Below, one piece after another: positions 4,713-35,898 of a stretch of DNA of 64,000 bases. This DNA is from Eledone cirrhosa (Eukaryota). Where the stretch lies: positions 81,892-145,891 of the forward strand of contig CAXHJY010000964.1 of assembly GCA_964016885.1 (NCBI GenBank). The letters run 5' to 3'. The notes under the pieces are model-generated. The model made no database searches, was not told the DNA's origin, and saw only the letters and a program-made list of their open reading frames with translations. Within the stretch, counting starts at the first letter, position 1. Each line of letters opens with the position of its first letter. The position numbers and the translations under genes are program-made.

Positions 4713-4831
4713 ATAAATTGAAACAAAATGAAAACGAAATTTCATTTCTCACTCTTAGTATGGCACTTACTTAAATGTAAGTATGCATGTATACGTACAT
4801 ACATATATGTATACAGACGTACAGTAGTATG

Positions 4832-4875
<44 letters not shown>

Positions 4876-5316
4876 TATACATATGCATACAGGTACACAT
4901 ACATATATGCACGTATCAGTTTAGCGGCGCTAACGTCGCTTTGTTCGTTTGTAAACAAACTGAACAGCCTGAATTTATGCCATACGGTGTTAAGGCAACC
5001 ACGTCACCTTTTTGTTCAACACTGACACAGGAACGATGTACTAGTTTCAAGCTTGTTAGCTATCATCAGCACCGTTTACCCATCTGCCAGATAGTTGAAC
5101 GTTCGAAAGTATATACTTTCCTTATGAAAATTAACGGCTGAGCAGCCTAATTTGCATATTGAGTGAGTTAAATCGGTTAGGCATACCGAAAACGATAAAT
5201 TGAAACAAAATGAAAACGAAATTTCATTTCTCACTCTTAGTATGGCACTTACTTAAATGTAAGTATGCATGTATACGTACATACATATATGTATACAGAC
5301 GTACAGTAGCATGCAC

Positions 5317-5349
<33 letters not shown>

Positions 5350-5790
5350 TATACATATGCATACAGGTACACATACATATATGCACGTATCAGTTTAGCG
5401 GCGCTAACGTCGCTTTGTTCGTTTGTAAACAAACTGAACAGCCTGAATTTATGCCATACGGTGTTAAGGCAACCACGTCACCTTTTTGTTCAACACTGAC
5501 ACAGGAACGATGTACTAGTTTCAAGCTTGTTAGCTATCATCAGCACCGTTTACCCATCTGCCAGATAGTTGAACGTTCGAAAGTATATACTTTCCTTATG
5601 AAAATTAACGGCTGAGCAGCCTAATTTGCATATTGAGTGAGTTAAATCGGTTAGGCATACCGAAAACGATAAATTGAAACAAAATGAAAACGAAATTTCA
5701 TTTCTCACTCTTAGTATGGCACTTACTTAAATGTAAGTATGCATGTATACGTACATACATATATGTATACAGACGTACAGTAGCATGCAC

Positions 5791-5823
<33 letters not shown>

Positions 5824-6261
5824 TATACATATGCATACAGGTACACATACATATATGCACGTATCAGTTTAGCAGCGCTAACGTCGCTTTGTTCGTTTGT
5901 AAACAAACTGAACAGCCTGAATTTATGCCATACGGTGTTAAGGCAACCACGTCACCTTTTTGTTCAACACTGACACAGGAACGATGTACTAGTTTCAAGC
6001 TTGTTAGCTATCATCAGCACCGTTTACCCATCTGCCAGATAGTTGAACGTTCGAAAGTATATACTTTCCTTATGAAAATTAACGGCTGAGCAGCCTAATT
6101 TGCATATTGAGTGAGTTAAATCGGTTAGGCATACCGAAAACGATAAATTGAAACAAAATGAAAACGAAATTTCATTTCTCACTCTTAGTATGGCACTTAC
6201 TTAAATGTAAGTATGCATGTATACGTACATACATATATGTATACAGACGTACAGTAGCATG

Positions 6262-6301
<40 letters not shown>

Positions 6302-6742
6302 TATACATATGCATACAGGTACACATACATATATGCACGTATCAGTTTAGCGGCGCTAACGTCGCTTTGTTCGTTTGTAAACAAACTGAACAGCCTGAAT
6401 TTATGCCATACGGTGTTAAGGCAACCACGTCACCTTTTTGTTCAACACTGACACAGGAACGATGTACTAGTTTCAAGCTTGTTAGCTATCATCAGCACCG
6501 TTTACCCATCTGCCAGATAGTTGAACGTTCGAAAGTATATACTTTCCTTATGAAAATTAACGGCTGAGCAGCCTAATTTGCATATTGAGTGAGTTAAATC
6601 GGTTAGGCATACCGAAAACGATAAATTGAAACAAAATGAAAACGAAATTTCATTTCTCACTCTTAGTATGGCACTTACTTAAATGTAAGTATGCATGTAT
6701 ACGTACATACATATATGTATACAGACGTACAGTAGCATGCAC

Positions 6743-6775
<33 letters not shown>

Positions 6776-7213
6776 TATACATATGCATACAGGTACACAT
6801 ACATATATGCACGTATCAGTTTAGCGGCGCTAACGTCGCTTTGTTCGTTTGTAAACAAACTGAACAGCCTGAATTTATGCCATACGGTGTTAAGGCAACC
6901 ACGTCACCTTTTTGTTCAACACTGACACAGGAACGATGTACTAGTTTCAAGCTTGTTAGCTATCATCAGCACCGTTTACCCATCTGCCAGATAGTTGAAC
7001 GTTCGAAAGTATATACTTTCCTTATGAAAATTAACGGCTGAGCAGCCTAATTTGCATATTGAGTGAGTTAAATCGGTTAGGCATACCGAAAACGATAAAT
7101 TGAAACAAAATGAAAACGAAATTTCATTTCTCACTCTTAGTATGGCACTTACTTAAATGTAAGTATGCATGTATACGTACATACATATATGTATACAGAC
7201 GTACAGTAGCATG

Positions 7214-7257
<44 letters not shown>

Positions 7258-7695
7258 TATACATATGCATACAGGTACACATACATATATGCACGTATCA
7301 GTTTAGCGGCGCTAACGTCGCTTTGTTCGTTTGTAAACAAACTGAACAGCCTGAATTTATGCCATACGGTGTTAAGGCAACCACGTCACCTTTTTGTTCA
7401 ACACTGACACAGGAACGATGTACTAGTTTCAAGCTTGTTAGCTATCATCAGCACCGTTTACCCATCTGCCAGATAGTTGAACGTTCGAAAGTATATACTT
7501 TCCTTATGAAAATTAACGGCTGAGCAGCCTAATTTGCATATTGAGTGAGTTAAATCGGTTAGGCATACCGAAAACGATAAATTGAAACAAAATGAAAACG
7601 AAATTTCATTTCTCACTCTTAGTATGGCACTTACTTAAATGTAAGTATGCATGTATACGTACATACATATATGTATACAGACGTACAGTAGCATG

Positions 7696-7735
<40 letters not shown>

Positions 7736-8176
7736 TATACATATGCATACAGGTACACATACATATATGCACGTATCAGTTTAGCGGCGCTAACGTCGCT
7801 TTGTTCGTTTGTAAACAAACTGAACAGCCTGAATTTATGCCATACGGTGTTAAGGCAACCACGTCACCTTTTTGTTCAACACTGACACAGGAACGATGTA
7901 CTAGTTTCAAGCTTGTTAGCTATCATCAGCACCGTTTACCCATCTGCCAGATAGTTGAACGTTCGAAAGTATATACTTTCCTTATGAAAATTAACGGCTG
8001 AGCAGCCTAATTTGCATATTGAGTGAGTTAAATCGGTTAGGCATACCGAAAACGATAAATTGAAACAAAATGAAAACGAAATTTCATTTCTCACTCTTAG
8101 TATGGCACTTACTTAAATGTAAGTATGCATGTATACGTACATACATATATGTATACAGACGTACAGTAGCATGCAC

Positions 8177-8209
<33 letters not shown>

Positions 8210-8650
8210 TATACATATGCATACAGGTACACATACATATATGCACGTATCAGTTTAGCGGCGCTAACGTCGCTTTGTTCGTTTGTAAACAAACTGAACA
8301 GCCTGAATTTATGCCATACGGTGTTAAGGCAACCACGTCACCTTTTTGTTCAACACTGACACAGGAACGATGTACTAGTTTCAAGCTTGTTAGCTATCAT
8401 CAGCACCGTTTACCCATCTGCCAGATAGTTGAACGTTCGAAAGTATATACTTTCCTTATGAAAATTAACGGCTGAGCAGCCTAATTTGCATATTGAGTGA
8501 GTTAAATCGGTTAGGCATACCGAAAACGATAAATTGAAACAAAATGAAAACGAAATTTCATTTCTCACTCTTAGTATGGCACTTACTTAAATGTAAGTAT
8601 GCATGTATACGTACATACATATATGTATACAGACGTACAGTAGCATGCAC

Positions 8651-8683
<33 letters not shown>

Positions 8684-9124
8684 TATACATATGCATACAG
8701 GTACACATACATATATGCACGTATCAGTTTAGCGGCGCTAACGTCGCTTTGTTCGTTTGTAAACAAACTGAACAGCCTGAATGTATGCCATACGGTGTTA
8801 AGGCAACCACGTCACCTTTTTGTTCAACACTGACACAGGAACGATGTACTAGTTTCAAGCTTGTTAGCTATCATCAGCACCGTTTACCCATCTGCCAGAT
8901 AGTTGAACGTTCGAAAGTATATACTTTCCTTATGAAAATTAACGGCTGAGCAGCCTAATTTGCAAATTGAGTGAGTTAAATCGGTTAGGCATACCGAAAA
9001 CGATAAATTGAAACAAAATGAAAACGAAATTTCATTTCTCACTCTTAGTATGGCACTTACTTAAATGTAAGTATGCATGTATACGTACATACATATATGT
9101 ATACAGACGTACAGTAGCATGCAC

Positions 9125-9157
<33 letters not shown>

Positions 9158-9598
9158 TATACATATGCATACAGGTACACATACATATATGCACGTATCA
9201 GTTTAGCGGCGCTAACGTCGCTTTGTTCGTTTGTAAACAAACTGAACAGCCTGAATTTATGCCATACGGTGTTAAGGCAACCACGTCACCTTTTTGTTCA
9301 ACACTGACACAGGAACGATGTACTAGTTTCAAGCTTGTTAGCTATCATCAGCACCGTTTACCCATCTGCCAGATAGTTGAACGTTCGAAAGTATATACTT
9401 TCCTTATGAAAATTAACGGCTGAGCAGCCTAATTTGCATATTGAGTGAGTTAAATCGGTTAGGCATACCGAAAACGATAAATTGAAACAAAATGAAAACG
9501 AAATTTCATTTCTCACTCTTAGTATGGCACTTACTTAAATGTAAGTATGCATGTATACGTACATACATATATGTATACAGACGTACAGTAGCATGCAC

Positions 9599-9631
<33 letters not shown>

Positions 9632-10072
9632 TATACATATGCATACAGGTACACATACATATATGCACGTATCAGTTTAGCGGCGCTAACGTCGCTTTGT
9701 TCGTTTGTAAACAAACTGAACAGCCTGAATTTATGCCATACGGTGTTAAGGCAACCACGTCACCTTTTTGTTCAACACTGACACAGGAACGATGTACTAG
9801 TTTCAAGCTTGTTAGCTATCATCAGCACCGTTTACCCATCTGCCAGATAGTTGAACGTTCGAAAGTATATACTTTCCTTATGAAAATTAACGGCTGAGCA
9901 GCCTAATTTGCATATTGAGTGAGTTAAATCGGTTAGGCATACCGAAAACGATAAATTGAAACAAAATGAAAACGAAATTTCATTTCTCACTCTTAGTATG
10001 GCACTTACTTAAATGTAAGTATGCATGTATACGTACATACATATATGTATACAGACGTACAGTAGCATGCAC

Positions 10073-10105
<33 letters not shown>

Positions 10106-10546
10106 TATACATATGCATACAGGTACACATACATATATGCACGTATCAGTTTAGCGGCGCTAACGTCGCTTTGTTCGTTTGTAAACAAACTGAACAGCCT
10201 GAATTTATGCCATACGGTGTTAAGGCAACCACGTCACCTTTTTGTTCAACACTGACACAGGAACGATGTACTAGTTTCAAGCTTGTTAGCTATCATCAGC
10301 ACCGTTTACCCATCTGCCAGATAGTTGAACGTTCGAAAGTATATACTTTCCTTATGAAAATTAACGGCTGAGCAGCCTAATTTGCATATTGAGTGAGTTA
10401 AATCGGTTAGGCATACCGAAAACGATAAATTGAAACAAAATGAAAACGAAATTTCATTTCTCACTCTTAGTATGGCACTTACTTAAATGTAAGTATGCAT
10501 GTATACGTACATACATATATGTATACAGACGTACAGTAGCATGCAC

Positions 10547-10579
<33 letters not shown>

Positions 10580-11020
10580 TATACATATGCATACAGGTAC
10601 ACATACATATATGCACGTATCAGTTTAGCGGCGCTAACGTCGCTTTGTTCGTTTGTAAACAAACTGAACAGCCTGAATTTATGCCATACGGTGTTAAGGC
10701 AACCACGTCACCTTTTTGTTCAACACTGACACAGGAACGATGTACTAGTTTCAAGCTTGTTAGCTATCATCAGCACCGTTTACCCATCTGCCAGATAGTT
10801 GAACGTTCGAAAGTATATACTTTCCTTATGAAAATTAACGGCTGAGCAGCCTAATTTGCATATTGAGTGAGTTAAATCGGTTAGGCATACCGAAAACGAT
10901 AAATTGAAACAAAATGAAAACGAAATTTCATTTCTCACTCTTAGTATGGCACTTACTTAAATGTAAGTATGCATGTATACGTACATACATATATGTATAC
11001 AGACGTACAGTAGCATGCAC

Positions 11021-11053
<33 letters not shown>

Positions 11054-11494
11054 TATACATATGCATACAGGTACACATACATATATGCACGTATCAGTTT
11101 AGCGGCGCTAACGTCGCTTTGTTCGTTTGTAAACAAACTGAACAGCCTGAATTTATGCCATACGGTGTTAAGGCAACCACGTCACCTTTTTGTTCAACAC
11201 TGACACAGGAACGATGTACTAGTTTCAAGCTTGTTAGCTATCATCAGCACCGTTTACCCATCTGCCAGATAGTTGAACGTTCGAAAGTATATACTTTCCT
11301 TATGAAAATTAACGGCTGAGCAGCCTAATTTGCATATTGAGTGAGTTAAATCGGTTAGGCATACCGAAAACGATAAATTGAAACAAAATGAAAACGAAAT
11401 TTCATTTCTCACTCTTAGTATGGCACTTACTTAAATGTAAGTATGCATGTATACGTACATACATATATGTATACAGACGTACAGTAGCATGCAC

Positions 11495-11527
<33 letters not shown>

Positions 11528-11968
11528 TATACATATGCATACAGGTACACATACATATATGCACGTATCAGTTTAGCGGCGCTAACGTCGCTTTGTTCGT
11601 TTGTAAACAAACTGAACAGCCTGAATTTATGCCATACGGTGTTAAGGCAACCACGTCACCTTTTTGTTCAACACTGACACAGGAACGATGTACTAGTTTC
11701 AAGCTTGTTAGCTATCATCAGCACCGTTTACCCATCTGCCAGATAGTTGAACGTTCGAAAGTATATACTTTCCTTATGAAAATTAACGGCTGAGCAGCCT
11801 AATTTGCATATTGAGTGAGTTAAATCGGTTAGGCATACCGAAAACGATAAATTGAAACAAAATGAAAACGAAATTTCATTTCTCACTCTTAGTATGGCAC
11901 TTACTTAAATGTAAGTATGCATGTATACGTACATACATATATGTATACAGACGTACAGTAGCATGCAC

Positions 11969-12001
<33 letters not shown>

Positions 12002-12442
12002 TATACATATGCATACAGGTACACATACATATATGCACGTATCAGTTTAGCGGCGCTAACGTCGCTTTGTTCGTTTGTAAACAAACTGAACAGCCTGAAT
12101 TTATGCCATACGGTGTTAAGGCAACCACGTCACCTTTTTGTTCAACACTGACACAGGAACGATGTACTAGTTTCAAGCTTGTTAGCTATCATCAGCACCG
12201 TTTACCCATCTGCCAGATAGTTGAACGTTCGAAAGTATATACTTTCCTTATGAAAATTAACGGCTGAGCAGCCTAATTTGCATATTGAGTGAGTTAAATC
12301 GGTTAGGCATACCGAAAACGATAAATTGAAACAAAATGAAAACGAAATTTCATTTCTCACTCTTAGTATGGCACTTACTTAAATGTAAGTATGCATGTAT
12401 ACGTACATACATATATGTATACAGACGTACAGTAGCATGCAC

Positions 12443-12475
<33 letters not shown>

Positions 12476-12916
12476 TATACATATGCATACAGGTACACAT
12501 ACATATATGCACGTATCAGTTTAGCGGCGCTAACGTCGCTTTGTTCGTTTGTAAACAAACTGAACAGCCTGAATTTATGCCATACGGTGTTAAGGCAACC
12601 ACGTCACCTTTTTGTTCAACACTGACACAGGAACGATGTACTAGTTTCAAGCTTGTTAGCTATCATCAGCACCGTTTACCCATCTGCCAGATAGTTGAAC
12701 GTTCGAAAGTATATACTTTCCTTATGAAAATTAACGGCTGAGCAGCCTAATTTGCATATTGAGTGAGTTAAATCGGTTAGGCATACCGAAAACGATAAAT
12801 TGAAACAAAATGAAAACGAAATTTCATTTCTCACTCTTAGTATGGCACTTACTTAAATGTAAGTATGCATGTATACGTACATACATATATGTATACAGAC
12901 GTACAGTAGCATGCAC

Positions 12917-12949
<33 letters not shown>

Positions 12950-13390
12950 TATACATATGCATACAGGTACACATACATATATGCACGTATCAGTTTAGCG
13001 GCGCTAACGTCGCTTTGTTCGTTTGTAAACAAACTGAACAGCCTGAATTTATGCCATACGGTGTTAAGGCAACCACGTCACCTTTTTGTTCAACACTGAC
13101 ACAGGAACGATGTACTAGTTTCAAGCTTGTTAGCTATCATCAGCACCGTTTACCCATCTGCCAGATAGTTGAACGTTCGAAAGTATATACTTTCCTTATG
13201 AAAATTAACGGCTGAGCAGCCTAATTTGCATATTGAGTGAGTTAAATCGGTTAGGCATACCGAAAACGATAAATTGAAACAAAATGAAAACGAAATTTCA
13301 TTTCTCACTCTTAGTATGGCACTTACTTAAATGTAAGTATGCATGTATACGTACATACATATATGTATACAGACGTACAGTAGCATGCAC

Positions 13391-13423
<33 letters not shown>

Positions 13424-13704
13424 TATACATATGCATACAGGTACACATACATATATGCACGTATCAGTTTAGCGGCGCTAACGTCGCTTTGTTCGTTTGT
13501 AAACAAACTGAACAGCCTGAATTTATGCCATACGGTGTTAAGGCAACCACGTCACCTTTTTGTTCAACACTGACACAGGAACGATGTACTAGTTTCAAGC
13601 TTGTTAGCTATCATCAGCACCGTTTACCCATCTGCCAGATAGTTGAACGTTCGAAAGTATATACTTTCCTTATGAAAATTAACGGCTGAGCAGCCTAATT
13701 TGCA
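4713..13704 (-). mobile_element. Retrozyme family A: tandem array of 19 near-identical ~474-bp monomers, one hammerhead ribozyme per monomer
   Basis: Period 474 (478 and 482 variants differ only in the internal TA run). Minus strand of each unit reads AACGGUG-CUGAUGA-UAGCUAACAAGCUU-GAAA-CUAG-UA-CAUCGUU. Many local hairpins. Left end joins (TA)n. Confidence 0.88.
5032..5076 (-). ncRNA. Minimal type I hammerhead ribozyme (first of 19 copies in the array)
   Basis: Stem I AACGGUG/CAUCGUU (7 bp). Core CUGAUGA...GAAA. Stem II AGCU-AACA-AGCU with a U.U closing pair. Palindromic stem III ACUAGU. Cleavage triplet GUA. Confidence 0.88.
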
Positions 13705-13708
13705 GTGT

Positions 13709-13862
13709 TGTGTCAGTGTTGAACAAAAAGGTGACGTGGTTGCCTTAACACCGTATGGCATAAATTCAGGCTGTTCAGTTTGTTTACAAACGAACAAAGC
13801 GACGTTAGCGCCGCTAAACTGATACGTGCATATATGTATGTGTACCTGTATGCATATGTATA

Positions 13863-13893
<31 letters not shown>

Positions 13894-14336
13894 GTGTGCA
13901 TGCTACTGTACGTCTGTATACATATATGTATGTACGTATACATGCATACTTACATTTAAGTAAGTGCCATACTAAGAGTGAGAAATGAAATTTCGTTTTC
14001 ATTTTGTTTCAATTTATCGTTTTCGGTATGCCTAACCGATTTAACTCACTCAATATGCAAATTAGGCTGCTCAGCCGTTAATTTTCATAAGGAAAGTATA
14101 TACTTTCGAACGTTCAACTATCTGGCAGATGGGTAAACGGTGCTGATGATAGCTAACAAGCTTGAAACTAGTACATCGTTCCTGTGTCAGTGTTGAACAA
14201 AAAGGTGACGTGGTTGCCTTAACACCGTATGGCATAAATTCAGGCTGTTCAGTTTGTTTACAAACGAACAAAGCGACGTTAGCGCCGCTAAACTGATACG
14301 TGCATATATGTATGTGTACCTGTATGCATATGTATA

Positions 14337-16675: not shown

Positions 16676-17768
16676 CACTAGAGAACAGTCAGGAACTAGA
16701 GAAAAACACAATGGAAAGCATCCAGCAAATAGCAAACTCCATCCACCAGAGCATTAGAGTTACTATAGACTACCCAAGTAAACACCCCAACCATCGATTA
16801 CCTTTACTAAACACAGAGCTCTGGTTAGATACCATTAACAACAAAAAACAAACCTCCATTCCCATTATGCCAAACCCATGACTTCCAAACATCTGATCCA
16901 CCGAAACTCGGACATTTCGGACCATACCAAAATCAACATACCGATTGTGGATTTGGTACGGGTGATGAGAAATGTGTCCCGCATGTGCAACCCCGAAGAA
17001 CTAGAGAGACACATACAACACTTCATCCACCGTATGCAGTTCTCTGGCTACAATCAGAGATATAGAATCAGAGTGTATAGAGGCGCCAGAACCAAATGGG
17101 AAAAAATGGTAAATAATGACATAAATGGGACGTGCACCTTGTATAGGAGCAAATTTTGGAATAGAATAGAAAGAACTAGGAACAAGGCTAATATAATAAA
17201 CTCATGGTATGATAGCAATAAATACCAGAGTGTAATGTTCATCGATACAACCCCTAGAGGCGAACTAGCTTACAAATTTAGAAGGGCCCTAAATAAACAT
17301 AAACTCAATATTAAGATAGTAGAAAGACCAGGTACCTCTGTAAAAACACTTATTAGCAATACATTCCTTTTTCAAAGACCCTCATGTATAGATAAGAAAT
17401 GTATAACCTGTAAAATAAGCCCCCATTTTAACTGTAAAACTAGAAATGTAGTGTATAGCATAAGATGTACTAAAGGACAATGTAGAGACAAAAATATAGT
17501 GTACATAGGTGAGACAGCTCGTAGTGTAGGGGAACGGATAAATGAACACTGGCGAGACCTTCAAGATAATAAAGAATCATCTGTACTCTACCAACATGCT
17601 AAGATAGAACACAAGGGTAAATTAGAGAACATAGAAATAAAAATAGAATCTACACACAGAAAAGACGCAATGTTTAGACAAATTACAGAGGCAATAAACA
17701 TAAAAGAACTACAACCAAAATTAAATAGAAAACATGAGCAGAACAGCTATATCACAACTTACAATTAA
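16676..17768 (+). pseudogene. PLE ORF C-terminal fragment (RT thumb + GIY-YIG endonuclease), frameshifted near 16850
   Basis: Contains NVVYSIRC...VYIGETAR and is highly similar to the C-terminus of 36053..40006. Confidence 0.9.
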
Positions 17769-17968
17769 GGACAAAATGAAAACACACACACACATAGAAC
17801 AAACAACCAACCAGTAATATGTAAATAAATAAATAGATAAATGAACATAAACACACACAGACACCCGGATGTGGCGCATGCGCAAACAGAGCACACAACA
17901 CACACACAGAAACAAAATGGCGTAGGACAGAACAAAGGAGAGGCACAGAAACAAAGAAAGGAATCCCC

Positions 17969-18013
17969 AGTCACTGAAGAGGTCACAGAGTGTGTGACGA
18001 AAGAACTATGACT
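17969..18013 (+). ncRNA. Minimal type I hammerhead ribozyme in PLE pLTR
   Basis: AGUCA-CUGAAGA-G-GUCACA(GAGUG)UGUGAC-GAAA-GAAC-UA-UGACU. Confidence 0.78.
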
Positions 18014-18223
18014 ATATATAAACAACTATCTGGTTGTAGAACCAACCAACCAACCAGAAATTTATAAATTTGTAAATTTATAAATATATAATAAATTGAA
18101 GTGAAAGCAACTGGTGCGTGTGTTTCTTATTGGCAACATGACCCTCCCAAGGTATAACAATATCGGTTTCAACACACGATTTCAGACAAAGAATCTTGCT
18201 AAACAAATTCAGAAACGAAATAT

Positions 18224-20647: not shown

Positions 20648-21418
20648 CAGAACAACAACATCAACTGCCACCACCACCACCACCGCCACCGCCGTCGCCA
20701 TCACCATCACCAGCGACCTGGCCTTAAGAACAACTTTAATAATAATTTTTCTGCTTTTGGCACGGATCCGGCGACTGGCCAGCGCATCACTGGTACTCTC
20801 TTTTGTTGACTCCGTGGAGAGCCATAACTCTATGCTGTAAAGCAATTATAGTAATACTGGACTGTAATACGATCGGCTTCAACTATACAAACTCTTGAAA
20901 GTCAACAGTTGACATAATCTGGTAATCTTGTATCAGTAATGACGGTAATATATATATATATATGTGTGTGTGTGCGTGTAAGTGAGTAGAGTAGCGTGTG
21001 TGTGTGTTTGTTGTATGTATGAGTGTTGCTGTGTGCACGCATATGTATGCGTGTGTGTGTATGTCGTACGTATAAGTGTCAATAAGTAATTTTTTTTTTT
21101 TTTTTTTTTTTTTTTGCGCGGGGACATAGAAATAATCGGGCTGGATGCCCGATCGAGCAGTTAAACCACTGGGAGTGAAGAACCCCTAGCCCATGTCAGG
21201 GTATTCTTCTAGGAGAAGGCATCTCAGGAAACTGGGTTAACTCCGATATAAAACCTGCGGCTCAGTAGTTACCGATGATGTTGATCTTTTCTTCTTTTCG
21301 GGTTATAGCTACTGTCGCTCAGAGAGTGGGATTGGTTCAGTGCACAGTCTTTCCTCACTTTAAAAATATTCGTCACGCACAGGCATTGCACGAGTGCATT
21401 AATAATTATTAATAGTGT

Positions 21419-21453
<35 letters not shown>

Positions 21454-21490
21454 TATTATTACTTTTTTTTTTTTTTTTTTTCCCAATTCA

Positions 21491-24400
21491 ATGATGTTCC
21501 AGAACAATGTAAACGAGATAATTGCCAATTTGGGTTCTGGAACAAAAAAGATCATTGGCAATAAGGGCAGGGGCCCCAAGTTATCACAACCTGGGCCCGC
21601 CCGTCATCGTGCCATTGTAATAGAGCCAAACAGGGCATTTAGTCTTGGCTGCTGGAACGTACGGACGCTGCTTGACAGGGATTCTTTGGAGCGTCCTGAA
21701 CGAAGGACCGCTCTTGTTGCAAAGGAGCTTCGACGTTACGATCTTGACATCGTGGCTTTGTCTGAGACGAGGTTAGCTGGAGATGGTCATCTTACGGAAT
21801 TTTGTGGAGAATATACATTCTTCTGGAAAGGAAGAGATGAAGGAACCAGAAGAGAGGCTGGGGTAGGATTTGCTGTTAAGACTGTACTGGTGAATAAATT
21901 AGAAGAATTCCCAGTGGGGATTAGTGAGCGTCTTATGTCCATGAGAGTTCCGCTGGACAAGGGAAGATATGCTACCCTGGTGAGTGTGTATGCTCCAACT
22001 ATGAATTCTGTCGATGAAGAAAAACTGTCCTTTTACCATGCCTTGAAAGGTGTTTTAAGAAATATCCCTCAGGCAGACAAAGTCATCGTGCTTGGTGACT
22101 TTAATGCTAGAGTGGGTAGGGATTTTAACACATGGAATGTAATCGGAAGGCATGGGGTGGGAAAGTGTAACAGCAATGGTATGCTCTTGCTGCAGATGTG
22201 TGAGGAGCTGGATCTGTGTGTTACCAACACCATGTTCCAACAAAAGAACAAATTCAAGACCACATGGATGCATCCTGCATCTAAGGAATGGCATCTTTTG
22301 GACTACGTCCTAGTCAGGATGCGTGACAGACAGGATGTGCAGTGTGTTCGTGTTCTTCGTGGAGCTGAGTGCTGGACGGACCACCGCCTGGTACGCGCAA
22401 AAGTGAATCTAATCACCAAACGTAAAATCCGGGCTCCTGGTGTTACCCTGCCCAAAAGATTGAATGCTGCTCGTCTTAAGGATAAAAATGTGAAGAGGAC
22501 ATTGGAAGAAGAGATGCAGGCTGCAGATCTTGGTGAGGATTGGCCGACCCTTAAAAAGTCGGTTTATGATGTAGGCAGACGTGTTCTGGGATTGGTGCAG
22601 AGAAAACATCAGGACTGGTTTAATGAGAAAGATGTGCATATAGATGACTTGTTGGCTGATAAGAGGCGCGCTCTGTCACGCTACTTGACGGCAAAACCAC
22701 AGGAGAGGAATACGTTGCATGAGGAGCTCAGAGATGTAAAATCACGTGTTAGGCGGAGTCTTTCTCAGATGAAGGATCAGTGGTGGAGTGAGAAGGCTGG
22801 TGAGATACAAACTGCGTCTGATTGCAATAACACAAAGCTGTTGTACAGTCTCTTGCGTGAGGTTTATGGACCGTCTTCTTCTCTGGTGACACCGATTCGC
22901 AGCAAGGATGGCAAAGAACTTCTTCGTGACTCACAGGGAATTCTACGAAGGTGGCGAGAGCACTTTGATGATCTTTTGAATCAGCCGTCTGTCGTCAGTG
23001 AAGATTTCCTCAATCTCATTCCGGAAAGTCCTGTGAAAGTAGCTCTCGCAGAACCTCCGACACTTGTGGAGGTTGCAGTGGCTATTTCGAAGCTGAACAG
23101 TGGAAGATCTCCAGGTATGGATGGCATACATGCTGAGCTCCTACAATATGGTGGTGAGAGACTCCTGCAACATCTTCACTCTCTGTTTGGAAGGATATGG
23201 GCTAATGAATCCGTGCCTGAGGACTGGAGAGATGCAGTAATGGTGGTCTTGTACAAGGGAAAGGGTAACAGGAATGATTGTGGGAACTACAGAGGTATAT
23301 CATTGCTTTCTGTCGTGGGGAAAGTTTTATGTAGGGTGCTTCTGGACCGTCTGCTGACACACATTGCAGATTGTGTCCTTCCTGAAAGTCAATCTGGTTT
23401 TCGTGTTGGACGCGGCACTACTGATATGATCTTCTCAGCTAGACAGCTCCAGGAGAAGTGCATTGAACAGGGCTTGGATCTGTATCAGGTTTTTGTCGAT
23501 CTGACAAAGGCTTTCGATACTGTCAACAGAGATGCATTATGGAAGGTTCTCCAGAAACTTGGTTGCCCTGATAAGTTCCTTGCTTTAGTTAGGTCTTTCC
23601 ATGACGACATGAAGGCTTGGGTTAATGTCGGAGGTAACATGTCGGAGCCTATCTCAGTAAAAAATGGAGTAAAACAGGGGGATATTCCAGCACCGACCCT
23701 GTTTGCCATATACTTTGCAATGGTTTTCTGTATTGCATTCAGGAATTGCGAGCATGGTGTTTACATCCGATATCGAACCTCAGGCAGCATATTTAACATC
23801 AGGCGCTTTGCTGCGAAGACAAAAGTATTTACATCAGTCATAAGAGACCTCTTGTATGCAGATGATTGCGATCTTGTAGCGCACACAGAGAGTGATATGC
23901 AGCACATTTTGAATGTATTTTCTGACGCTTGCACTGCCCTGGGTTTGACTGTCAGTCTCAAGAAAACCGTCGTCATGTACCAACCTGCACCTGGTAGGCA
24001 GTACACTGAACCAAACATCTATGTGTATGGCAAACGACTTGGAGTGGTTGATCAGTTTGTCTACCTGGGAAGCACTGTCAATCAATACGGCAACCTTGAC
24101 AGTGAAATCTCACTTAGGATTAGGAAAGCAAGTGATGCTTTCGGAAAGCTAGAAAGGCGACTCTGGGGTCGGCGAGACATATGCAGGAGGACAAAGGTAA
24201 GGGTGTACAGGGCATGTGTACTCTCTTGTCTTCTTTATGCCTGCGAGACCTGGGTCACATATCGACGCCACCTTAAGCAATTGGAGCGTTTCCATCAGAT
24301 GTGTCTCAGACGGATACATGGCGTTCGCTGGAGGGACCACATCAGTGATGTCGAGATTTTGGAAAGCTCTGTGTGTGACAGTATAGAAGCTCTTGTGCTT

Positions 24401-25036
24401 AAGCAGCGACTCCGTTGGAGTGGTCACCTTGCCAGGATGAAGGATTCTAGAATACCAAAACAACTCTTCTATGGAGAGTTGGTTAAAGGAAAACGACCGC
24501 CACATAAACCAAAAAAGAGGTATAAGGATTCCTTGAAAGCCTCTCTGAAAGACGCTAACATCTCTGCTGATACATGGGAAAATATTGCTGCTGATCGTAA
24601 TAAATGGAGAAAGACTGTATATGAGGGAAAAGTTGCCTTTGAGGCATCTCGAATCGCACACGAGAAAGTAAAGCGGGACGTGAGGAAGGGTATTGCTGTT
24701 GCACTTCCAGACGGCGAGGGTCCTCCTATGTTTCTGACATGCAGCGTCTGTGCGAGACTCTGCCTAAGCAAAGCTGGACTCGAAAGTCATCTTCGCAGTC
24801 ATAAAGTAAGACCAGTGGTTGACTACCAGGCTGCTGTTGGAGATGCTACTCATCATGCTTGCCAAACATGTGGTAGAGAATGTAAATCAGCAGGAGGACT
24901 CAAGCGACATGCAAAAGTACACGAACTCCAACCACAGCCGACTATTCCCAGTAAATGTTTTGGTTGCCGACTCTGTGCAAGACATTTTAGATCATTGGCT
25001 GGGCTAAAAAGCCACATTCGATCGCAGCACTGTTAG
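21491..25036 (+). CDS. RTE LINE protein: AP endonuclease + reverse transcriptase + three C-terminal C2H2 zinc fingers (1181 aa)
   Basis: APE motifs WNVRTL, LSETR, GDFNARVG, LDY, TDH. RT motifs FVDLTKAFD, GVKQG, LLYADD. C2H2 motifs CSVC..HLRSH, CQTC..HAKVH, CRLC..HIRSQH. Confidence 0.96.
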   Translation: MMFQNNVNEIIANLGSGTKKIIGNKGRGPKLSQPGPARHRAIVIEPNRAFSLGCWNVRTLLDRDSLERPERRTALVAKELRRYDLDIVALSETRLAGDGHLTEFCGEYTFFWKGRDEGTRREAGVGFAVKTVLVNKLEEFPVGISERLMSMRVPLDKGRYATLVSVYAPTMNSVDEEKLSFYHALKGVLRNIPQADKVIVLGDFNARVGRDFNTWNVIGRHGVGKCNSNGMLLLQMCEELDLCVTNTMFQQKNKFKTTWMHPASKEWHLLDYVLVRMRDRQDVQCVRVLRGAECWTDHRLVRAKVNLITKRKIRAPGVTLPKRLNAARLKDKNVKRTLEEEMQAADLGEDWPTLKKSVYDVGRRVLGLVQRKHQDWFNEKDVHIDDLLADKRRALSRYLTAKPQERNTLHEELRDVKSRVRRSLSQMKDQWWSEKAGEIQTASDCNNTKLLYSLLREVYGPSSSLVTPIRSKDGKELLRDSQGILRRWREHFDDLLNQPSVVSEDFLNLIPESPVKVALAEPPTLVEVAVAISKLNSGRSPGMDGIHAELLQYGGERLLQHLHSLFGRIWANESVPEDWRDAVMVVLYKGKGNRNDCGNYRGISLLSVVGKVLCRVLLDRLLTHIADCVLPESQSGFRVGRGTTDMIFSARQLQEKCIEQGLDLYQVFVDLTKAFDTVNRDALWKVLQKLGCPDKFLALVRSFHDDMKAWVNVGGNMSEPISVKNGVKQGDIPAPTLFAIYFAMVFCIAFRNCEHGVYIRYRTSGSIFNIRRFAAKTKVFTSVIRDLLYADDCDLVAHTESDMQHILNVFSDACTALGLTVSLKKTVVMYQPAPGRQYTEPNIYVYGKRLGVVDQFVYLGSTVNQYGNLDSEISLRIRKASDAFGKLERRLWGRRDICRRTKVRVYRACVLSCLLYACETWVTYRRHLKQLERFHQMCLRRIHGVRWRDHISDVEILESSVCDSIEALVLKQRLRWSGHLARMKDSRIPKQLFYGELVKGKRPPHKPKKRYKDSLKASLKDANISADTWENIAADRNKWRKTVYEGKVAFEASRIAHEKVKRDVRKGIAVALPDGEGPPMFLTCSVCARLCLSKAGLESHLRSHKVRPVVDYQAAVGDATHHACQTCGRECKSAGGLKRHAKVHELQPQPTIPSKCFGCRLCARHFRSLAGLKSHIRSQHC

Positions 25037-25528: not shown

Positions 25529-28028
<2,500 letters not shown>

Positions 28029-30343
28029 ATTGGAATAAATGCTCTGAAATAGCGATATATATGTGAATATAGACATAGAATATTCGAAAATATTCTGTAT
28101 GTTTATAATAAACATTTTGAAGACCTAATCGCTATAGAATAGAATACGTCACGTATTACAATTAGATTCTCGATAAAAGCAAGGGAAGTAAGTCTACGCG
28201 TTTCATTCTTGTTAGAATTCATCAGGACTACATATCCAGTGCTTTTATCGAGAATGACACAGCTAGAGACTTATAGAATACTTAGCTGTGTACAGGAACT
28301 GGTTTGAAAGAGCGGTTGCCGGTCCGGCAGAAATTAGAAATTGGAATAAATGCTCTGAAATAGCGATATATATGTGAATATAGACATAGAATATTCGAAA
28401 ATATTCTGTATGTTTATAATAAACATTTTGAAGACCTAATCGCTATAGAATAGAATACGTCACGTATTACAATTAGATTCTCGATAAAAGCAAGGGAAGT
28501 AAGTCTACGCGTTTCATTCTTGTTAGAATTCATCAGGACTACATATCCAGTGCTTTTATCGAGAATGACACAGCTAGAGACTTATAGAATACTTAGCTGT
28601 GTACAGGAACTGGTTTGAAAGAGCGGTTGCCGGTCCGGCAGAAATTAGAAATTGGAATAAATGCTCTGAAATAGCGATATATATGTGAATATAGACATAG
28701 AATATTCGAAAATATTCTGTATGTTTATAATAAACATTTTGAAGACCTAATCGCTATAGAATAGAATACGTCACGTATTACAATTAGATTCTCGATAAAA
28801 GCAAGGGAAGTAAGTCTACGCGTTTCATTCTTGTTAGAATTCATCAGGACTACATATCCAGTGCTTTTATCGAGAATGACACAGCTAGAGACTTATAGAA
28901 TACTTAGCTGTGTACAGGAACTGGTTTGAAAGAGCGGTTGCCGGTCCGGCAGAAATTAGAAATTGGAATAAATGCTCTGAAATAGCGATATATATGTGAA
29001 TATAGACATAGAATATTCGAAAATATTCTGTATGTTTATAATAAACATTTTGAAGACCTAATCGCTATAGAATAGAATACGTCACGTATTACAATTAGAT
29101 TCTCGATAAAAGCAAGGGAAGTAAGTCTACGCGTTTCATTCTTGTTAGAATTCATCAGGACTACATATCCAGTGCTTTTATCGAGAATGACACAGCTAGA
29201 GACTTATAGAATACTTAGCTGTGTACAGGAACTGGTTTGAAAGAGCGGTTGCCGGTCCGGCAGAAATTAGAAATTGGAATAAATGCTCTGAAATAGCGAT
29301 ATATATGTGAATATAGACATAGAATATTCGAAAATATTCTGTATGTTTATAATAAACATTTTGAAGACCTAATCGCTATAGAATAGAATACGTCACGTAT
29401 TACAATTAGATTCTCGATAAAAGCAAGGGAAGTAAGTCTACGCGTTTCATTCTTGTTAGAATTCATCAGGACTACATATCCAGTGCTTTTATCGAGAATG
29501 ACACAGCTAGAGACTTATAGAATACTTAGCTGTGTACAGGAACTGGTTTGAAAGAGCGGTTGCCGGTCCGGCAGAAATTAGAAATTGGAATAAATGCTCT
29601 GAAATAGCGATATATATGTGAATATAGACATAGAATATTCGAAAATATTCTGTATGTTTATAATAAACATTTTGAAGACCTAATCGCTATAGAATAGAAT
29701 ACGTCACGTATTACAATTAGATTCTCGATAAAAGCAAGGGAAGTAAGTCTACGCGTTTCATTCTTGTTAGAATTCATCAGGACTACATATCCAGTGCTTT
29801 TATCGAGAATGACACAGCTAGAGACTTATAGAATACTTAGCTGTGTACAGGAACTGGTTTGAAAGAGCGGTTGCCGGTCCGGCAGAAATTAGAAATTGGA
29901 ATAAATGCTCTGAAATAGCGATATATATGTGAATATAGACATAGAATATTCGAAAATATTCTGTATGTTTATAATAAACATTTTGAAGACCTAATCGCTA
30001 TAGAATAGAATACGTCACGTATTACAATTAGATTCTCGATAAAAGCAAGGGAAGTAAGTCTACGCGTTTCATTCTTGTTAGAATTCATCAGGACTACATA
30101 TCCAGTGCTTTTATCGAGAATGACACAGCTAGAGACTTATAGAATACTTAGCTGTGTACAGGAACTGGTTTGAAAGAGCGGTTGCCGGTCCGGCAGAAAT
30201 TAGAAATTGGAATAAATGCTCTGAAATAGCGATATATATGTGAATATAGACATAGAATATTCGAAAATATTCTGTATGTTTATAATAAACATTTTGAAGA
30301 CCTAATCGCTATAGAATAGAATACGTCACGTATTACAATTAGA
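28029..30343 (-). mobile_element. Retrozyme family B: ~7.4 tandem, apparently identical 311-bp monomers, one hammerhead ribozyme per full monomer
   Basis: Period 311 (TGGAATAAAT at 28031, 28342, 28653...). Minus strand reads GUAGUC-CUGAUGA-AUUCU(AACA)AGAAU-GAAA-CGCG-UA-GACUUAC. (TA)n lies on both sides. Confidence 0.9.
28188..28231 (-). ncRNA. Minimal type I hammerhead ribozyme (first of 7 copies)
   Basis: Canonical core, 5-bp stem II, palindromic stem III ACGCGU, GUA cleavage triplet, stem I AGUC/GACU. Enclosed by a perfect 16-bp inverted repeat (28166-28181 / 28240-28255). Confidence 0.92.
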
Positions 30344-30345
30344 GT

Positions 30346-33327
<2,982 letters not shown>

Positions 33328-33541
33328 TCGTTTCTGAATTTGTTTAGCTAGATTCTTTATCTGAAATCGTGTGTTGAAACCGATATTGTTATACTTTGGG
33401 AGGGTCATGTTGCCAATAAGAAACACACGCACCAGTTGCTTTCACTTCAATTTAATTTAATATATATTTATAAATTTACAAATTTATAAATTTCTGGTTG
33501 GTTGGTTGGTTCCACAACCAGATAGTTGTTTATATATATAT

Positions 33542-33586
33542 AGTCATAGTTCTTTCGTCACACACTCTGTGACCTCTTCAGTGACT
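33542..33586 (-). ncRNA. Hammerhead ribozyme in the inverted pLTR
   Basis: Reverse complement of 35899-35943. Confidence 0.78.
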
Positions 33587-35805
33587 GGGGATTTCTTTCT
33601 TCGTTTCTGTGCCTTTCCTTTCTTCTATCCTACGCCATTTTGTTTGTGTGTGGGTTGCGTGCTCAGTTTGCGCATGCGCCACATCCGGGTGTCTGTGTGT
33701 GTTTGTGTTCATTTTTCTATTTTTCTATTTATATTTGTTTGTTTATTTATTTATTTATTGTTGGTTGGTTGTTTGTTCTATGTGTGTGTGTGTTTTCATT
33801 TTGTCTTGTGTGTGTTTTCATTTTGTGTGTGTTTTCAATTGTAAGTTGTTTATATATGTGTGTGTGTGTTTTCATTTTGTCCTTAATTGTAAGTTGTGAT
33901 GTTGCTGTTCCACTCATATTTTCTATTTAATTTTGGTTTTAATTCTTTTATGCTTACTGCCTCTGTAATTTGCCTAAACATTGCGTCTTTCTTGTGTGTG
34001 GATTCTATTTTTATTTCTATGCTCTCTAATTTACCCCTGTGTTCTATCTTAGCATGTTGGTAGAGCACAGATGATTCTTTACTATCTTGGAGGTCTCGCC
34101 AGTGTTCATTTATTCGTTCCCCTATACTACGAGCTGTCTCACCTATGTACACTATATTTTTGTTTCTACATTGTCCCTCAGTACATCTTATGCTATATAC
34201 TACATTTCTAGTTTTACAGTTAATATGGGGGCTTATTTTACAGGTTATACATTTCTTATCTATACATGAGGGTCTTTGGAACGGGTATGTCTTGCTAATA
34301 AGTGTTTTTACGGAGGTACCAGGTCTTTCTACTATCTTAATATTGAGATTATGTTTCTTTAGGGCCCTTCTGAATTTGTAGGCTAGTTCGCCTCTAGGGG
34401 TTGTATTGATGAACATTACACTCTGGTATTTATTGCTATCATACCATGAGTTTATTCTATTGGCCTTGTTCTTAGTTCTTTCTATTCTATTCCAAAATTT
34501 GCTCCTATACAAGGGGCAGGTCCCATTTATGTCATTATTTACCATTTTTTCCCATTTGGTTCTGGCTCCTTTATACACTCTGATTCTATCTCTCTGATTG
34601 TAGCCAGAGAACTGCATACGGTGGATGAAGTGTTGTATGTGTCTCTCTAGTTCTTCGGGGTTGCACATGCGGGACACATTTCTCATCACCCGTATCAAAT
34701 CCGCAATCAGTATGTTGATTTTGGTATGGTCCGAAATGGCCGAGTTTCGGTGGATCAGATGTTTGGAAGTCATGGGTTTGGCATAATGGGAATGGAGGAT
34801 TTGTTTTTGGTTGTTAATAGTATCTAACCAGAGCTCTGTGTCTAGTACAGGTAATCGATGGTTGGGGTGTCTACTTGGGTAGTCTATAGTAACTCTAATG
34901 CTCTGGTGGATGGAGTTTGCTATTTGCTGGATGCTTTCCATTGTAAATAATGACATAAATGGGACCTGCCCCTTGTATAGGAGCAAATTTTGGAATAGAA
35001 TAGAAAGAACTAAGAACAAGGCCAATAGAATAAACTCATGGTATGATAGCAATAAATACCAGAGTGTAATGTTCATCAATACAACCCCTAGAGGCGAACT
35101 AGCCTACAAATTCAGAAGGGCCCTAAAGAAACATAATCTCAATATTAAGATAGTAGAAAGACCTGGTACCTCCGTAAAAACACTTATTAGCAAGACATAC
35201 CCGTTCCAAAGACCCTCATGTATAGATAAGAAATGTATAACCTGTAAAATAAGCCCCCATATTAACTGTAAAACTAGAAATGTAGTATATAGCATAAGAT
35301 GTACTGAGGGACAATGTAGAAACAAAAATATAGTGTACATAGGTGAGACAGCTCGTAGTATAGGGGAACGAATAAATGAACACTGGCGAGACCTCCAAGA
35401 TAGTAAAGAATCATCTGTGCTCTACCAACATGCTAAGATAGAACACAGGGGTAAATTAGAGAGCATAGAAATAAAAATAGAATCCACACACAAGAAAGAC
35501 GCAATGTTTAGACAAATTACAGAGGCAGTAAGCATAAAAGAATTAAAACCAAAATTAAATAGAAAATATGAGTGGAACAGCAACATCACAACTTACAATT
35601 AAGGACAAAATGAAAACACACACACACATATATAAACAACTTACAATTGAAAACACACACAAAATGAAAACACACACAAGACAAAATGAAAACACACACA
35701 CACATAGAACAAACAACCAACCAACAATAAATAAATAAATAAACAAACAAATATAAATAGAAAAATAGAAAAATGAACACAAACACACACAGACACCCGG
35801 ATGTG

Positions 35806-35852
35806 GCGCATGCGCAAACTGAGCACGCAACCCACACACAAACAAAATGGCG
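35806..35852 (+). promoter_or_regulatory. Putative pLTR promoter module: NRF1-type GCGCATGCGC and YY1-type CAAAATGGCG motifs
   Basis: Consensus-like matches. Same order and position upstream of the hammerhead in the divergent PLE at ~61800-61895 (minus strand). Confidence 0.5.
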
Positions 35853-35898
35853 TAGGATAGAAGAAAGGAAAGGCACAGAAACGAAGAAAGAAATCCCC

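Follow-up and report, generated by a model that had tools for sequence, protein, structure and literature searches.

One insertion of a hammerhead-bearing 310/311-bp family in Eledone cirrhosa, likely written by a Penelope-like enzyme

In a 64,000-bp stretch of DNA from Eledone cirrhosa (contig CAXHJY010000964.1, positions 81,892 to 145,891; this whole stretch is here called the window) a 311-bp unit is repeated in tandem. The array is, with a probability that we put at roughly 70%, one insertion of a non-coding, hammerhead-bearing 310/311-bp family, written by a Penelope-like enzyme that copied round a small RNA circle; ribozyme cleavage and the circle are both predictions. The Penelope type of the insertion is indicated by two fixed ends, by inverted arms, by a TA target and by the same pattern in two autonomous Penelope-like families. 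The family appears to work like a non-autonomous Penelope-like element.

The features are listed in the table, in which unit position 1 is the first base 3' of the predicted cut. The preliminary description had placed here a 311-bp monomer with a minus-strand hammerhead enclosed by a perfect 16-bp inverted repeat, all of which was borne out: there is no mismatch among the seven full copies and the partial one, and the core (AGUC-CUGAUGA-AUUCU-AACA-AGAAU-GAAA-CGCG-UA/GACU) occurs seven times on the minus strand and not at all on the plus strand of the array. The unit is non-coding and has 34% GC; no open frame of at least 150 amino acids lies inside the array, an Rfam search returned no match at gathering scores, and no promoter was identified. 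An extra C at unit position 3 together with A288 assigns the copy to the youngest haplotype class. It is a one-armed insertion, a minority case in the family, in which the second arm is absent. Its 3' end at unit position 166 is, we infer, the start site of reverse transcription. A target-site duplication is unreadable here, both flanks being TA repeats.

Table. Features of the 311-bp array, its surroundings in the window and its sister family
Feature	Position	Strand	Remarks
Tandem array	28029..30343	-	2,315 bp = 7.44 x 311 bp; the hammerhead sense is the minus strand
RNA-sense 3' end, unit position 166	28029	-	...UUCCAAU, then TA repeat; main fixed end of the family
Unit position 131, second fixed end of the family	28064	-	outer end of the inverted arms elsewhere; unused in the window copy
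Hammerhead, first full unit	28191..28229	-	type I; recurs every 311 bp, 7 copies
Hammerhead parts	28191..28229	-	helix I AGUC/GACU, CUGAUGA, helix II AUUCU/AGAAU, AACA loop, GAAA, helix III palindrome ACGCGU
Predicted cut after GUA	between 28195 and 28194	-	folding prediction
16-bp clamp extending helix I	28166..28255	-	28240-28255 pairs with 28166-28181
5'-truncated end at unit position 29	30343..30345	-	2 filler bases, then TA repeat
Left (TA)n/(TATG) microsatellite	25530..28028		target site
Right (TA)n/(TATG) microsatellite	30346..33326		orientation that of the left one
Penelope-like element	33327..40506	+	1,320-aa open frame 36044-40006, hammerhead-bearing pseudo-LTRs, inverted 5' arm, two end sites 60 nt apart
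Sister family loci	L113-L152, e.g. L143:1174-5319	minus (L143)	units diverged within arrays

The family was counted by pattern searches of the 3.0-Gb genome, for which reversed-pattern controls gave 0. A degenerate core pattern found 17,067 hammerhead cores of the 310/311-bp family, in line with the earlier claim of a recent and dispersed retrozyme; the A288 form of the core gave 3,963 matches and the window's own form 1,393. For the 3' junction of unit position 166 with TA there were 1,051 exact matches, for the junction at about position 131 there were 840, and for a junction at the ribozyme cut site the genome-wide pattern search gave none. The RNA-sense 3' ends are fixed and the 5' ends scattered.

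The 92 loci of the family analysed outside the window lie within the first 232 Mb of contig C1. Twelve of them were picked by the hammerhead alone and 80 by their 166 end, the latter coming from the first 100 matches listed (all on contig C1). Ten of these 12 are two-armed, all ten head-to-head, and eight end exactly at 166. Among the 80, 71 are two-armed, 2 are one-armed, 5 run off the end of the sequence retrieved and 2 lie at assembly gaps; head-to-head two-armed arrays were found at 71 of the 73 resolvable loci. K-mer mapping placed the end of the inverted arm at unit positions 121-140 in 70 of 71 cases, the end being 131 or lying within a TA-like run (133-141) where TA overlap blurs it. 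Arms have a median length of about 3 units and reach 19, both exceed one unit at 55 of 71 loci, and their lengths fit an exponential. Near the cut site there are 4 of 148 arm 5' ends as against 6.2 expected, and since 5' ends are not enriched there, reverse transcriptase appears to read through the cut site. Of 72 joints between two arms, 39 have an overlap of 1-8 bases, and inserts are present in 22. Stalling of reverse transcriptase at the 16-bp clamp was considered and discarded as not shown: between unit positions 14 and 31 lie 16 of the 148 5' ends (nominal p 0.012), which is not significant in a window scan (p 0.20).

Penelope-like elements whose GIY-YIG endonuclease is C-terminal have an inverted 5'-truncated copy and a tail of 30-40 bp at one end (Craig et al., 2021, PMC8557442), and Frangieh et al. 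(2024, PMC11167929) described that the tail lies between two internal start sites of reverse transcription and that the enzyme cleaves AT-rich DNA on both strands and extends the two of them. The 3' ends at 166 and 131 of the 311-bp family fit this 30-40 nt signature. With the elements so described the family shares the inverted 5'-truncated arm, the tail, two adjacent starts of reverse transcription, AT-rich or (TA)n targets and a type I hammerhead; unlike autonomous elements, it has no frame for reverse transcriptase plus GIY-YIG in the array, and both of its arms are multimers of the 311-nt unit.

Context and a positive control for the two-end, inverted-arm pattern are provided by the neighbouring element listed in the table, which was termed Penelope-like by motifs, pseudo-LTRs and hammerheads. 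It is apparently intact; its 1,320-aa frame has a CxxxxCxxC motif before the endonuclease, and a Pfam search of the frame gave no family at E 0.1. All 77 scored genome matches to the protein are 99-100% identical, which indicates that the element is very young. Among 43 ends of copies of this first family, 18 lie at one site and 24 at a second about 60 nt on, and a second Penelope-like family (5,242 matches to its pseudo-LTR motif) has the same two end classes in TA, again with a tail of about 60 nt. Truncated copies at 61450-62966 (minus) and 16678-18219 represent the second family and a 90%-identical relative of the first, and a tblastn search of 133 sequences brought up further divergent Penelope-like fragments. 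As helper of the 311-bp family both families were rejected, their tails being about 60 nt as against about 35 nt; no pseudo-LTR homology of the 311-bp unit to the window's Penelope-like elements was found, and no matching tail is shared with the two families tested.

The window also holds a 474-bp hammerhead family (4713-14327 and 51559-52460) with a short inverted arm, a few ends of which lie near unit positions 415-419 and 465-474, about 57 nt apart. The window's Penelope-like elements may be the helper of this family (tails of about 57 and 60 nt). Its unit contains ATGCAAAT, which we take to be the octamer motif. That the two hammerhead families are unrelated, as had been stated, holds outside the ribozyme, where a comparison of the 311-bp array within the window listed only TA-type matches; it does not hold for the ribozymes, which have in common the AACA loop 2, a palindromic helix III and the GUA site. 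Long open frames of other non-LTR retroelements lie at 21416-25036, 43529-47053 and 52501-55728.

In the proposed mechanism the arrays would be transcribed as multimers, which pairs of hammerheads would cut, the helix III palindrome being predicted stable only between two units, and a host ligase would close the monomer into a circle. The Penelope reverse transcriptase-endonuclease would cut both strands of a TA repeat, each broken end would prime one cDNA, at the two internal start sites (166 and about 131), and each reverse transcriptase would run round the circle for about 3 and up to 19 units. End-joining would then fuse the two cDNAs into head-to-head arms, of which the window copy would have retained only the cDNA begun at position 166.

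The nature of the template was read from the haplotypes. Sixty loci have full units in each of their two arms; at 55 of them the arms share their majority haplotype (chance between loci 0.059), and 12 of the 60 carry in both arms a 'private' variant, one seen at no other sampled locus, the sample being 83 loci out of more than 1,000. The arrays look copied from one monomer, in agreement with the earlier suggestion of a reverse-transcribed multimer. To become fixed in every unit of both inverted arms, a variant has to pass through a bottleneck of one unit, at insertion or close to it. One haplotype per insertion points to a single monomer as template, probably a circular one, and shared haplotypes, scattered 5' ends and exponential arm lengths together find their simplest explanation in a ligated monomer circle. 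Three sequencing runs of unknown kind gave one 340-nt contig each (310+30), as is expected from a tandem array and a circle alike, and these contigs were left out of account. Of the five exceptions to arm identity, three are single-unit arms with one odd base and two are mosaics. At locus L062 all six units of the inverted arm have A277G, which in the main arm is confined to the unit next to the junction, as though the template had changed midway through copying; at L156:1565-6831 one arm passes in register from an old haplotype to a young one, by template switch or by later conversion.

The main rival to the monomer circle is an uncut, uniform multimer: a linear transcript of a parent array would serve as template for a Penelope-type insertion, and uniformity would stem from the parents or from gene conversion. 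The two mosaics fit a mixed linear template, the U288 classes (see below) are predicted to misfold helix II, and ribozyme cleavage is unnecessary for Penelope insertion in vitro (Frangieh et al., 2024). We nevertheless regard the linear template as unlikely, since a new mutation hits one unit of a parent, yet the 37 haplotypes found across 83 loci are each fixed across their array, and since the sample-private variants stand in both inverted arms. Moreover, abutting twin priming predicts a cluster of main-arm 5' ends at the second start site, and none is seen (9 of 76 at 120-145).

Less probable still is the insertion of a monomer or short piece derived from Penelope, followed by local growth through unequal crossover, as proposed for vertebrate retrozymes by Li et al. 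(10.64898/2026.07.22.740005). In the long arrays L052, L053 and L071 unit-level variants do recur, which points to expansion or conversion of the DNA at a later time. Two inverted arms would, however, have to grow separately and yet remain identical (55 of 60), the youngest arrays are already long, with up to 17 cores in one arm at 0.12 substitutions per kb, and no similarity to the pseudo-LTRs of the window's Penelope-like elements was found.

The monomer folded as a circle reaches −67.2 kcal/mol as compared with −47.5 +/- 4.3 for shuffled sequences (z −4.5; none of 200 shuffles as stable), so that the fold check proposed in the preliminary description turned out in its favour. Much of this predicted stability comes from the clamp and the hammerhead: the interior without them has a z of −2.0 (6 of 150 shuffles as stable). 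The opposite strand folds equally well (z −5.0). The expectation that the rest of the unit also pairs was upheld in part. Clamp (pair probabilities 0.52-1.0 in the circular fold) and hammerhead stand; GCCGG-T-CCGGC would leave a loop of 1 nt, too small for the stem to close, and UGCCG/CGGCA with a 3-nt loop is predicted instead; the AUAGCGAU stem is weak (0.49-0.61). The helix III palindrome ACGCGU is predicted to form a duplex between two units (−7.5 kcal/mol) and no hairpin, which is the double-hammerhead arrangement known from PMC4209133. From the usual hammerhead, in which G10.1-C11.1 is the common pair (PMC4209133), the family departs by an A-U or U.U in this place and by its GUA site. 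The probability of helix II is predicted to be about 0.9 with A288 and about 0.15 with U288 (U288 classes 0.13-0.17). Li et al. saw cleavage in 1 of 9 Xenopus dimers.

An older sister family with units of 317-320 bp (2,233 motif matches) aligns along the whole unit and permits a test of covariation, which had also been suggested and which the clamp passed by compensatory changes: both sides have changed in 4 of 12 aligned pairs, and pairing is found in 98% of cells. Two-sided changes are found in helix II and the AGAAUAUU stem too; the pairing of ACACAGCUA with UAGCUGUGU is not maintained in the sister unit. As the compensatory changes lie between two lineages, they count as few events. Most sister hammerheads have U3-A8 and a 12-nt palindromic helix III, whereas the 311-bp family has C3-G8, which one sister branch keeps; C3-G8/U3-A8 is a known covariation of the core (PMC4209133). 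Most of the sister 3' ends shown lie 11 nt past a shared CAGAGCA motif, like position 166, and those 11 bases differ. Further hammerhead families with U3-A8 cores (UUGAAAA, UUGAUAA) were seen at L116, L153, L176 and L184, likewise in TA-rich sites.

A satellite spread at the DNA level by extrachromosomal circles, with the hammerhead as a passenger, would presumably yield uniform arrays as well, by rolling-circle DNA; it is scarcely credible, since the 3' ends are fixed and strand-specific, the 5' ends are random, the polarity is uniformly head-to-head and compensatory changes have preserved the structure. Least probable of all is an endogenised viroid-like RNA replicating from RNA to RNA, for which one may cite the small, predicted circular and ribozyme-bearing unit and the haplotypes that differ between insertions, and against which stand a ribozyme on one strand only, a branched fold with 59% of bases paired, and the copying of both arms of every two-armed locus examined from the hammerhead-sense strand. 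Viroids and hammerhead satellite RNAs share with the 311-nt unit the size, the predicted circle and the option of a double hammerhead; unlike them, the unit is encoded in the genome, has its ribozyme in one polarity, is branched and has 34% GC. The family is most probably not a viroid, and the epithet 'viroid-like, highly base-paired' was not supported.

The hammerheads of the family fall into four classes, A285/U288, U285/U288, A288 and the window class (16, 28, 17 and 6 arrays), with 0.66, 0.34, 0.15 and 0.12 single-unit substitutions per kb in the same order (Spearman 0.37, p 0.002), the last two being indistinguishable in age; an estimate that counts all deviations gives a flatter series (from lowest to highest 0.34, 0.48, 0.57 and 0.83 per kb). 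The subfamilies can be arranged by age, the changes that set them apart lying mainly in the hammerhead, and the window's type is among the youngest. Among the recurrent array-wide variants, 10 of 17 lie in the 44-nt hammerhead, which makes up 14% of the unit (p 2e-5; two pairs share a site); the corresponding counts are 10 of 79 for unit-level variants and 1 of 17 for private ones. The U288 classes hold most copies (3,963 of the 17,067 cores being A288), which counts against a simple 'better ribozyme' account. Among the array-wide changes A-to-G is found 10 times and T-to-C 4 times (p 0.047; p 0.026 when set against unit-level changes), an excess that may faintly reflect editing of an RNA template. 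We tentatively consider it possible that in each insertion a dimeric Penelope enzyme has left a two-sided rolling-circle record of a single RNA circle, and that the family is a population of circles under ribozyme selection. This reading is suggested by the hammerhead-focused changes between subfamilies, by the change in the two youngest classes that is predicted to restore helix II, and by the A-to-G lean, as in template editing.

Retrozymes as such are known. Metazoan non-LTR retrozymes, among them newt satellite 2 and axolotl HHR_Amex1/2, were described by Cervera and de la Pena (2020, PMC7229834), who proposed, without showing it in the main text, that Penelope-like elements make tandem cDNA on a circular template. 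Judged by its sequence, the 311-bp family has all the features of this group as given in that text: tandem non-coding units of 150-450 bp with low GC (below 50%) and one type I hammerhead each, a weak palindromic helix III, a monomer predicted to fold stably on itself and thousands of dispersed copies. At its base, helix II of the older classes has a U.U mismatch like that of HHR_Amex2. Unlike the retrozymes described there, it has two fixed internal ends, mostly two inverted arms in (TA)n and no readable target-site duplication; in the main text of PMC7229834 the words 'inverted' and 'microsatellite' have 0 occurrences.

In 2026 Li, Clavereau and Pollet (10.64898/2026.07.22.740005) presented vertebrate non-LTR retrozymes as non-autonomous Penelope-like sequences. 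Like theirs, the 311-bp family co-occurs with endonuclease-bearing Penelope-like elements, and the array, with at least two consecutive units that carry a full hammerhead, falls under their definition of an active retrozyme. Their case, as set out there, is built on co-occurrence and pseudo-LTR homology and favours local amplification, whereas the one made here is built on the anatomy of the insertions, no pseudo-LTR homology having been found.

The preliminary description did not contain the two fixed ends inside the unit, the Penelope-type build with two arms, the sister family or the age series of subfamilies. An anatomy with two arms and fixed ends is described in none of the retrozyme texts covered, a point on which their supplements could bear, and literature searches brought up no report of it. 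That animal retrozymes return to DNA by a Penelope reverse transcriptase acting on circular RNA has been proposed in the literature cited, and in the texts covered was not demonstrated. The family offers exact predicted start sites (166 and 131), a TA target, a product in which two multimeric arms are inverted, and natural ribozyme variants that differ stepwise in age, features that make rolling-circle target-primed reverse transcription testable in the published in vitro Penelope assay.
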